From Escherichia phage Turkey5, in sequence record PQ471516.1: a stretch of DNA of 64,000 nt; one strand, given 5' to 3'. The notes beneath the pieces are model-generated. The model worked only from the letters and a program-made list of their open reading frames with translations. It was not told where the DNA came from and searched no databases. The position numbers and the translations under genes were made by a program. Shown piece after piece: positions 7,152-8,000 of this stretch. Every line of letters begins with the position of its first letter. The stretch's first letter is position 1.

Positions 7152-7295
7152 ATGAAAACTTGTCAATGTGGTCAGAAATCTATTACGGGTTTAAAGCGGG
7201 GCGTTGCTCTTTGCCAGTACCATTATAATTTACAAGTATGGGGTAAAGAATGGGCCGACCAGGTGGAAGCAATCAAGAAAGCAAAAAGTAAGTAA
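7152..7295 (+). CDS. small Cys-containing protein (47 aa; CQCG...C), below the size cutoff of the supplied ORF track
   Basis: ATG with RBS AAGGAAA directly after cassette 7068-7140; C-terminal codons plus downstream promoter are duplicated at 7570-7670. Confidence 0.4.
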   Translation: MKTCQCGQKSITGLKRGVALCQYHYNLQVWGKEWADQVEAIKKAKSK

Positions 7296-7345
7296 AAATA
7301 TTATCACAGTGCTATTGACATAGTTTGATAGTACTGGCATAATAG
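7296..7345 (+). promoter_or_regulatory. Type-2 promoter (TTGACA N17 TGgCATAAT, extended -10, no stem-loop)
   Basis: Near-identical copies at 7590-7640 and 10432-10480; related copy at 18250-18292. Confidence 0.65.
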
Positions 7346-7374
7346 ATTTTATCAAGACAACTGAGGAAAATAAA

Positions 7375-7587
7375 ATGGCTATCATTACTAAAATCAAAGT
7401 AAACAAATCACTGGTTAAGCTGGAAGAAGTGAAAGCAGGTTATAAAGTATCGTGGTGCGGTATGTATCGGATGTTCGCAGATATTGATGAAGCGATCAAT
7501 TATTACAGCGACACGGTTAAAAACTTTGTTCGTGCTGATGTGGTTATGGCAGTGGTAACGCACAAAGCAGCGAAAGAAAGTAAGTAA
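7375..7587 (+). CDS. hypothetical protein (70 aa), possible paralogue of 10513..10692
   Basis: RBS GAGGAAA; N-terminus MAIITKIKV resembles MAIIAKTEIV of the ORF at 10513. Confidence 0.6.
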   Translation: MAIITKIKVNKSLVKLEEVKAGYKVSWCGMYRMFADIDEAINYYSDTVKNFVRADVVMAVVTHKAAKESK

Positions 7588-7676
7588 AAATATTATCACA
7601 GTACTATTGACATAGTTTGATAGTACTGGCATAATAGATTTTATCAAGACAACATATTAATTTAAGGAATACAAAA

Positions 7677-8000
7677 ATGGCTAAAACTATCATTAACACC
7701 GTTTCCCTGGCTGCAATCCGTGCAATCAATGTTGACGGTAAACGTTGGACTGATTCATATGGCAATACTTATCATTCTTGTCATGTAAGCGTTGAACTGG
7801 ATAACGGTTTGAATGATCTGGCGGTTGAATCATTTACTTATGGCTATGAAGATGCATATCAACAAACGGCGTTAGATCTCTTAAAGGAATCAGTAGACGG
7901 GCTTAATACTGATGAAACCTCCCTTACTCGTTTGTGCAATGATCTTAATATCCCGTTGCATTGTACTGTACAGAATGTTAAACGCAAAAAAGATCTTTAA
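7677..8000 (+). CDS. hypothetical protein (107 aa), paralogue of 14280..14603
   Basis: Shares 'RWTDS.GNTYHSC.VS', 'FTYGY' and C-terminal 'KRKKD' with the ORF at 14280; RBS AAGGAA. Confidence 0.7.
   Translation: MAKTIINTVSLAAIRAINVDGKRWTDSYGNTYHSCHVSVELDNGLNDLAVESFTYGYEDAYQQTALDLLKESVDGLNTDETSLTRLCNDLNIPLHCTVQNVKRKKDL

Follow-up and report, generated by a model that had tools for sequence, protein, structure and literature searches.

The stretch of DNA analysed here, 64,000 nucleotides (nt) from Escherichia phage Turkey5 (sequence record PQ471516.1; hereafter the window), carries at positions 7152-8000 three small genes, A, B and C, which are separated by two copies of a promoter-bearing repeat that we call the type-2 cassette, or P2. 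Gene A (7152..7295, plus strand) encodes a Cys/His-rich ORFan of 47 amino acids (aa) without a Pfam family and is variably present in related phages, gene B (7375..7587, plus strand), a 70-aa ORFan, lies between the two P2 copies and appears to be the movable module of the site, and gene C (7677..8000, plus strand) encodes 107 aa and has a paralogue at 14280-14603. The three genes show no mutual similarity. What follows A and B is nearly the same, i.e., the 77 nt at 7285-7361 (copy 1, plus strand) and at 7577-7653 (copy 2, plus strand) are 99% identical, with a single mismatch (7311 G vs 7603 A). The identity begins at AAAGTAAGTAA, which is the last three codons (K-S-K) and stop of two unrelated open reading frames (ORFs), gene A ending in AKSK and gene B in KESK before the stop, and takes in an A/T-rich segment, a TTGACA-17-CATAAT promoter with TG, and a stem-loop.

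The initial annotation had described near-identical last codons and a type-2 promoter after two unrelated genes (7281-7370 and 7570-7670), and the alignment confirms this. A third such junction had been placed at 10425-10500; the repeat is present there (copy 3, 10419..10495, plus strand, 84% identity, between genes 10217-10429 and 10513-10692), but its likeness to copies 1 and 2 starts only at the stop codon, without the last codons. A fourth copy (18231..18307, plus strand) is 70% identical. The description of P2 as a type-2 promoter can be refined, as P2 also belongs to the stem-loop cassettes: its predicted fold is a 12+6 bp hairpin which encloses the -35 box, the spacer and part of the -10 box, with a free energy of -16.8 kcal/mol (z -4.8; 0 of 200 shuffles as stable), and the stem is followed by AGAUUUUAUC.

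Bases 6500-11000 were matched by 51 phage records, all of them from jumbo coliphages of the Asteriusvirus type or from Salmonella phages, with genomes of 310-386 kb and Ecwhy_1 as the top match at 98.4%, and we assign the window by its sequence to Asteriusvirus (PBECO4/121Q-like, a Rak2-like jumbo coliphage). Window positions 1..20430 are collinear with bases 1049-21622 of vB_Ec-M-J (hereafter J), in which bases 1-21525 are annotated 'Direct Terminal Repeats' (21.5 kb), and direct terminal repeats (DTRs) of 20.7-21.0 kb have been reported for Sharanji (PhageTerm) and fEgEco12 (PhageTerm and restriction digests) (PMC11895373, PMC13070987). Because of this collinearity and the published DTR sizes, on which the equivalence rests (the window holds one copy), the focal site would fall within the early region, the terminal repeat, of a Rak2-like jumbo phage. 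This region (1..20430) is a dense array of small ORFans, all on the plus strand and without assigned function, each preceded by a sigma-70 promoter cassette; the relatives annotate these genes as hypothetical.

The pattern used to find the cassettes was widened to take in the -35 variants TTGCAT and TTGCAC, and it returned 47 plus-strand sigma-70 cassettes in 1-20.4 kb, to which the copy at 18261 was added by hand (48, roughly one per gene). The same pattern gave 25 mostly weaker matches in the other 43.4 kb and 8 matches on the minus strand, and a generic promoter scan gave 106 sites against 68 ± 9 in shuffles, including ten perfect 12/12 matches. By sequence match the boxes are TTGACA or TTGCAA, a spacer of 16-17 nt and TATAAT or CATAAT, with an AAAAA-rich stretch upstream, and in most cassettes the palindrome AGTACT adjoins both boxes. 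What the copies have in common extends beyond the promoter hexamers; similarity limited to those hexamers would have undone the earlier claim. The repeats are 50-110 nt long and fall into families of 27, 15 and 10 copies (168 high-scoring segment pairs, HSPs, in self-BLAST); they extend from the upstream stop codon or a few nt before it (AAAGTAAGTAA; ATGTAATAG) to the ribosome-binding site (RBS) or ATG, so that A/T-rich sequence upstream, sub-families of spacer, the first transcribed stretch, the stem-loop and the RBS are all covered.

Type-1 cassettes (27 copies on the plus strand, spanning 603..19540, repeat families D1-D6) are laid out as AAAAAGTAC-TTGCA(A/T)-16 nt-TATAAT, then about 12 nt (..TTTACATC..), a G-rich hairpin, RBS and ATG. 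The hairpin has 7-10 bp (GGGGAGAA-loop-TTCTCCCC and variants) and -10 to -16 kcal/mol, with folds of -13 to -14 kcal/mol among them. For its pair statistics the cassettes were anchored on the hairpin loops, a MAFFT alignment of the 27 copies having lost the stem register, and a contiguous stem of at least 5 bp was found in 186 of 233 type-1 cassettes from eight genomes, with its start mostly 12-14 nt after the -10 box. There are 60 distinct hairpin sequences, and their two arms change together (e.g., AGCGGGAA/TTCCCGCT, GAGGGGAA/TTCCCCTC, GGTGGGGAA/TTCCCCACT), which argues for selection on the structure of the stem. The stem begins about 5-7 nt from the predicted transcription start, and no U-tract follows it; a terminator would therefore be a poorer fit than a stabiliser at the mRNA 5' end or a site for protein binding.

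The type-3 cassettes (9571, 13314, 16619 and 18881) have a 12-bp terminator-like hairpin containing a TTGACT -35; the stem (-17 to -19.5 kcal/mol) passes a terminator scan, and its T-rich tail contains TATTAT. They belong to an intergenic element of about 110-150 nt (9558-9704, 13299-13430, 16606-16716 and 18867-18973; partial at 2409-2500, 11240-11334 and 210-245) in which the tail is followed by a conserved box, CCCAYAGGGTGC(A/G)NNAGTGTATC, and usually, some 120 nt downstream, by a type-1 cassette. This element may combine a terminator with a promoter, or it may be a short non-coding transcript, and the type-2 and type-3 hairpins could terminate read-through. Neither the stem-loops nor the CCCAYAGGGTGC element matched a known RNA family when 1-22 kb was compared with Rfam (E ≤ 0.1). 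Sub-families of spacer and stem-loop are mixed within the window: the cassettes at 3431 and 3793 have a common stem-loop and different spacers, and those at 3793 and 17606 a common spacer and different stem-loops, combinations that are the expected product of crossovers between the -10 box and the stem.

Whole modules of cassette and gene are also repeated. Three of the four scattered paralogue pairs listed in the initial annotation are clear. Genes 1471 and 3871 are 67% identical in protein over 79 aa (E 1.8e-36), and their type-1 cassette and gene modules (1383..1712 and 3784..4112, plus strand) are 73% identical in DNA over 337 nt, cassette included. Genes 14280 and 7677 (gene C) are 40% identical over 107 aa (E 3.9e-28). 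Genes 14694 and 1796 are 39.5% identical (E 2.6e-22) with a gap of about 45 aa, which corresponds to an extra internal segment in the 134-aa gene of the module at 14598..15098 (plus strand), where the cassette is TTGACA-17-TATAAT. In the partner module (1705..2062, plus strand) identity starts at the upstream gene's last codon and stop (ATGTAATAG). The cassette of that module (1705-1795) has lost its -35 box, with TATCATTTTTTGC vs TATTTGACATTGCCCA in 14598-14693, and as its AGTACT sites and TATAAT remain it would be a decaying cassette copy. The fourth pair, 7375/10513, is weak: BLASTP yields no alignment, a Smith-Waterman score of 56 was reached by 0 of 3000 shuffles (24.7 ± 4.9), and once the common MAII N-terminus is left out a score of 46 was reached by 4 of 3000. 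Gene 10513 (10513..10692, plus strand, 59 aa) is perhaps a distant paralogue of gene B and, like B, has a P2 cassette upstream, so P2 and a B-family gene would form a repeated module. The reported duplication of a promoter and RBS block was also recovered, as the segments 15415-15475 and 15691-15750 (plus strand), which flank gene 15472-15690, align as near-identical.

How this arrangement arose can be read from the relatives. The first 23 kb of the window were aligned to J, ECO103 4-12-1, TH47, Ecwhy_1, G17, SD-1_S14 and SP27 and the HSPs chained; a cassette interval was taken as -30 to +100 around the -35 box, and such intervals cover 30% of the region. Unique synteny breakpoints fell inside cassette intervals in 41 of 53 cases (binomial p = 1.4e-12), and several of the 12 outside lay just 6-10 nt beyond an interval. 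Location alone is weak evidence, and the argument is therefore carried by the double homology, or chimeric overlap, at the junctions. At eight segments specific to the window (1150|1387, 3496|3779, 5223|5455, 7361|7577, 8938|9096, 14016|14179, 15475|15691 and 16808|17594) the relative's two flanking alignments overlap by 62-108 nt, i.e., a single cassette in the relative aligns to both cassettes of the window. Two insertions specific to a relative give the mirror image (17150|17050, +396 nt; 9785|9691, +455 nt).

Three-way alignments of these single cassettes show 5' informative sites like the left window cassette and 3' sites like the right one, with one switch between them. The switch lies upstream of the -35 at 7361|7577, at the -35 for 1150|1387 and 15475|15691, between the -10 and the stem-loop at 3496|3779, inside the stem-loop at 14016|14179 and 16808|17594, and before the RBS at 5223|5455. 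Because the crossover points vary within the shared sequence, exchange appears to be driven by homology and not to be site-specific. Junctions recur in independent genomes. An 88-aa gene (3512..3778, plus strand) between cassettes 3417-3496 and 3779-3858 is absent from six relatives, each with one chimeric cassette; a 77-aa gene (1155..1388, plus strand) with two flanking cassettes is missing from Ecwhy_1, G17 and SP27; gene 15472-15690 (plus strand) is missing from TH47, SD-1_S14 and SP27, each with one chimeric block; and TH47 also lacks a 785-nt block of three small genes and an internal cassette (16829..17598, plus strand) between the cassettes at 16738 and 17596. This contrast of two flanking cassettes with a single left/right chimera supports the proposal, already made in the initial annotation, that recombination within the regulatory cassettes shuffles genes.

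The focal site is a case in point. The order P1-A-P2-B-P2-C is found in the window, Ecwhy_1 and J; ECO103 and G17 have P1-A-P2-C, with gene B missing, one P2 and an overlap of 77-95 nt at 7361|7577; SD-1_S14 has P1-B-P2-C, with its junction in 13-16 nt of homology at the RBS/ATG; SP27 has A-P2 and then a different gene, and TH47 has neither A nor B. Scored by BLAST presence and absence in jumbo phages, A and B occur together in 7, A alone in 17 and B alone in 8. The gene pairs found on either side of P2 are A|B, B|C, A|C, A|other and 10217|10513, and, in phage A7_1, a 10217-like gene with B and B with a 3871-like gene. An exact search of IMG/VR with the P2 core found one 121Q-like contig, in which the 3' half of the copy at 10419 is replaced by the 5' untranslated region (UTR) found upstream of gene C (7677), which is there fused to the 10513 gene; the P2 cassette is thus itself mosaic.

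The same modules reach beyond the genus. Gene B has DNA matches in 15 jumbo phages and 3 Vequintavirinae (83-99% identity) and gene A in 24 jumbo phages and 15 phages of 137-155 kb; matches of 78-90% to the two genes in phages of that size include A7_1, A5-4, W70, UPEC06, A73 and others. Matches to gene A of 78-80% were also seen in phages of about 150 kb such as phiWec179, Nernie, outra, ESCO8 and others. A7_1 (145 kb) is annotated Vequintavirinae, and in its locus OP795442.1, 76.5-81.6 kb, compared with window 3871-10531, segments carrying about eight window genes (3871, in two copies, and 4154, 6781, A, 10217, B, 9779 and 5221) are 68-92% identical to the window and arranged differently, with type-1 and type-2 cassettes joining them. 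The same modules in another order with the same cassette types imply that early modules have been exchanged between phage families. Gene 3871 is 92% identical to the A7_1 gene and just 73% to its in-genome partner 1471, so some paralogue pairs may be separately acquired copies and not in-situ duplicates. In a 9-kb A7_1 locus, four of five AGTACT sites lie, by eye, inside shared cassettes, which hints at transfer to A7_1 from an Asteriusvirus-like donor.

A7_1 also bears on the shared gene ends at the focal site. There gene A ends ...GCAAAAAGTAAT TGA (...AAAAGTAAT TGA) with no P2 after it, whereas gene B ends ...GAAAGTAAGTAA followed by P2 in every genome examined. The A|P2 joint of Asteriusvirus may for this reason be a join at the 7-nt microhomology AAAGTAA, which would partly account for the common K-S-K-stop. 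With one type-1 cassette as a BLAST query, 8-34 matching places per Asteriusvirus record were found among the matches listed, and, among the same matches, a few places in RaK2, K64-1, Muenster, fENko-Kae01, Eneladusvirus, CBB, a few Vequintavirinae and others; several of the Rak2-like matches lie within annotated terminal repeats (Muenster, fENko-Kae01, CBB).

Taken together, we consider it probable, with good confidence, that composite promoter/stem-loop cassettes serve as portable homology through which early genes are gained, lost and swapped, as in the shuffling by promoter-early stem-loops (PeSLs) known from other phages. In each copy the stop codon of the gene before it is followed by an A/T-rich segment, a predicted strong sigma-70 promoter with its stem-loop, and the RBS, and some 48 copies of three or four sequence types punctuate the early region of about 20 kb; as they have 50-110 nt of sequence in common, they could act as portable homology. 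Recombination between two cassettes of one genome, by unequal crossing-over, single-strand annealing or copy-choice, would remove the intervening gene, and recombination with the cassette of a co-infecting genome or of an excised circle would insert or replace a module of promoter and gene. A-P2-B-P2-C at 7152-8000 would then be one state among several, and the common K-S-K-stop the left edge of the copied segment. The enzymes are presumably the phage's general UvsX/RecA-type machinery. The sequences themselves show how the cassettes are built, that breakpoints lie in them, that single cassettes are chimeric with crossovers at varying positions, and that P2 has many partners; we infer promoter activity and strength, a role of the stem-loops as 5' mRNA stabiliser and/or attenuator or terminator, the enzymes, and any circular (mini-circle) intermediate.

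Several points weigh against this interpretation. Nearly all intergenic DNA in the region is cassette, and the enrichment of breakpoints cannot separate recombination in cassettes from survival of intergenic breakpoints. Some junctions have little or no overlap (12511|12511; 9785|9785; 11239|11556, 13 nt; 7154|7362, 16 nt) and would need microhomology or illegitimate joining. Each event may be read as an insertion or as a deletion, the detailed alignment covers seven relatives, one partial contig and one Vequintavirinae locus out of at least 51 matching records, and the literature searched held no expression or recombination experiment for this lineage.

Every event in which the window has the extra segment is formally a deletion between direct repeats 160-790 nt apart, and repeat instability alone, by slippage or single-strand annealing deletions together with local tandem duplication and divergence, could be proposed without any exchange between genomes; the paralogous cassette and gene modules inside the genome suit such a history. 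We regard it as unlikely, though it is the best placed of the alternatives. Genes lying between duplicated cassettes, such as A, B and C, are unrelated to their neighbours, modules stand in another order and with other partners in 121Q-like and Vequintavirinae genomes at 68-92% identity, and the closer kinship of gene 3871 to its A7_1 counterpart (92%) than to its paralogue (73%) is hard to derive from local duplication. Replacements, with other sequence between the same two cassettes, also occur (4412|4640, 7152|7975, 7385|7923 and 8924|9099).

Convergence with selection would make the cassettes alike because they are optimised strong promoters, with illegitimate recombination striking anywhere and only intergenic junctions surviving. 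The location of breakpoints, uninformative where nearly all intergenic DNA is cassette, and the few junctions with 0-16 nt of overlap are compatible with this account. It is nevertheless improbable, as discrete sub-families of cassettes agree even in functionally unconstrained parts (spacers of 16-17 nt, the stretch before the -35, the last codons of upstream genes) and the two P2 copies have a single difference in 77 positions; the ten junctions with 62-108 nt of double homology and a single left-to-right switch largely refute it.

An integron-like exchange, in which a dedicated enzyme would act at the hairpins or at the AGTACT palindromes abutting the -35 and -10, finds some encouragement in the conserved hairpin of every cassette, in the speculation of Arbiol et al. 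on a protein targeting the GGGG...CCCC stem, and in the palindrome itself. The window has 275 AGTACT sites where shuffles give 20.3 ± 4.4, a 13.5-fold excess that makes it by far the most over-represented palindromic hexamer; its preferred context is CAGTACTG, and sites lie between genes as well as in each of the three reading frames (examples are 7330, 7600, 7622, 12515 and 12535). It is conserved, and it sits at both promoter boxes. Overall, 85-94% of aligned sites are conserved vs 63-75% for control hexamers, and enrichment is 15-21-fold in every Asteriusvirus locus vs 1.7-fold in the A7_1 locus. The crossover intervals nevertheless vary by event, some without AGTACT (3496|3779), the palindrome is plentiful inside genes far from breakpoints, and no integrase or recombinase domain was detected among ten ORFs scanned with Pfam (five focal-junction genes and five larger ORFs), in which no family exceeded threshold. 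A site-specific enzyme therefore seems very improbable to us, and an assembly artefact, in which short-read assemblers collapse or duplicate repeats of 77-100 nt and create false gene presence and absence, is scarcely credible: although several records are flagged UNVERIFIED and the repeats are near-identical, the same junctions appear in independently sequenced phages of different countries (3496|3779 in six, 1150|1387 in three), what varies is entire ORFs, each with an RBS of its own, and the A-only, B-only and A+B states are each found in 7-17 genomes.

The palindrome is a candidate site for a regulator or nucleoid protein, or a modification target, and a literature search found no description of AGTACT in phages. 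It is absent from stretches at about 20.3-23.2 kb and 26.0-30.9 kb. Across the whole window six other palindromic hexamers are missing (CCATGG, CAGCTG, AGGCCT, AGCGCT, CCGCGG and CCCGGG, with 2-7 expected each), consistent with restriction-site avoidance. A bolder extension, which we think doubtful, is that the terminal repeat is an open exchange platform passing host-takeover genes among the unrelated Asteriusvirus, Vequintavirinae and phAPEC8-like coliphages, with AGTACT, lineage-specific and under purifying selection, as the site bound or cleaved by a phage factor that would control the promoters and/or stimulate exchange.

Other features of the region and its surroundings were observed. 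The ORF at 16008-16604 (199 aa) has sub-threshold Pfam protein-kinase matches (E 0.002-0.003; 17-18 bits vs cut-offs of 23-32) and could be an early kinase, though unproven, and the ORF at 6073-6549 has a sub-threshold RNase H match. The J homologue of gene 2807-3418 contains a 63-nt in-frame internal duplication (675 nt vs 612 nt; window 2790-2855, J 3917-3919). Just beyond the cassette array, at 20749-23210, lie about a dozen tightly packed, often overlapping ORFs of 72-86 aa that are weak paralogues of one another (25-48% identity), almost without promoter-like sites and without AGTACT sites. A tandem duplication of 206 nt (23653-23858 / 23880-24085) follows.

The closest known system is that of the PeSLs, whose part in gene shuffling has been described in the T4-type phages RB49/phi1, T4/PST and KVP40/nt-1 (Arbiol et al. 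2010, PMC2839356; Comeau et al. 2014, PMC4122927). In RB49/phi1 the PeSL stem-loop behaved as a terminator or attenuator in a lacZ reporter (PMC2839356), and PeSLs have been linked to encapsidated mini-circles (Arbiol et al. 2010, PMC2839356). The comparison is one of architecture, the cassettes here being known from sequence alone, and five defining features at that level are present: promoter, stem-loop, bounds at stop and Shine-Dalgarno (SD) sequence, a plastic ORFan region, and indels with hybrid cassettes. Like PeSLs, the cassettes start with the stop codon of the preceding gene and continue through AT-rich sequence, a consensus sigma-70 promoter and a GGGG...CCCC stem-loop to the SD and the start codon; the stem-loop follows the -10, lies between the boxes, or overlaps the -35, spacer or -10, matching published sub-classes; about 50 copies are concentrated in a plastic ORFan region; and where close relatives differ by indels or replacements, cassettes mark the limits and one hybrid cassette is left.

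There are also differences. PeSLs belong to Straboviridae and occur in several hyperplastic regions, whereas the present phage is an Asteriusvirus (Rak2-like jumbo phage) in which the cassettes fill one contiguous block of about 20 kb that would be the direct terminal repeat. The commonest stem-loop here, some 5-7 nt into the predicted transcript and without a U-tract, resembles a 5'-UTR element more than a terminator, and the modules are common to phages of another family (Vequintavirinae). RB49/phi1 was not among the 60 matches listed for one type-1 cassette in BLAST (18 further records lay beyond these). The searched literature on Asteriusvirus and Rak2-like phages gives DTRs or RpoD-like promoters with UP elements, and cassette-mediated shuffling was not found in it; PeSL-mediated shuffling is already known, and for this lineage we did not find it described in that literature.

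The movement of single genes with their own promoter, with conserved flanks that target harmless sites, also recalls the modular evolution of Botstein and Campbell and the morons of Hendrix. What differs here is that all modules are co-oriented and that the regulatory element itself is the homology. The insertion of morons is attributed to illegitimate recombination, with no conserved flanks and frequently in the opposite orientation. With integrons (attC hairpins and IntI) the region has in common single-gene arrays split by hairpin-forming repeats, in an order that varies by genome, but no integrase was found in the ORFs scanned, crossovers are not at a fixed site, and each cassette has its own promoter in place of a common Pc. 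The pre-early and early regions of other phages with long DTRs (T5-like; Rak2-like CBB, Muenster and fENko-Kae01) likewise carry small ORFs of host-takeover type behind host-type promoters, and RpoD-like promoters with UP elements have been noted in CBB (PMC5259590). Their descriptions list promoters only, and none in the papers searched treats the cassettes as joints for recombination or compares gene content cassette by cassette.

If our interpretation is true, the PeSL mechanism would not be peculiar to T4-like phages and would organise the first-entering, host-transcribed end of jumbo phages of about 350 kb, and the accessory early genes of jumbo phages would be linked to those of unrelated coliphages. 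It would predict which genes are dispensable, where deletions may occur in therapeutic stocks (several of these phages being therapy candidates) and which junctions to follow by PCR, and the cassettes would offer ready-made homology arms for engineering an otherwise intractable region.

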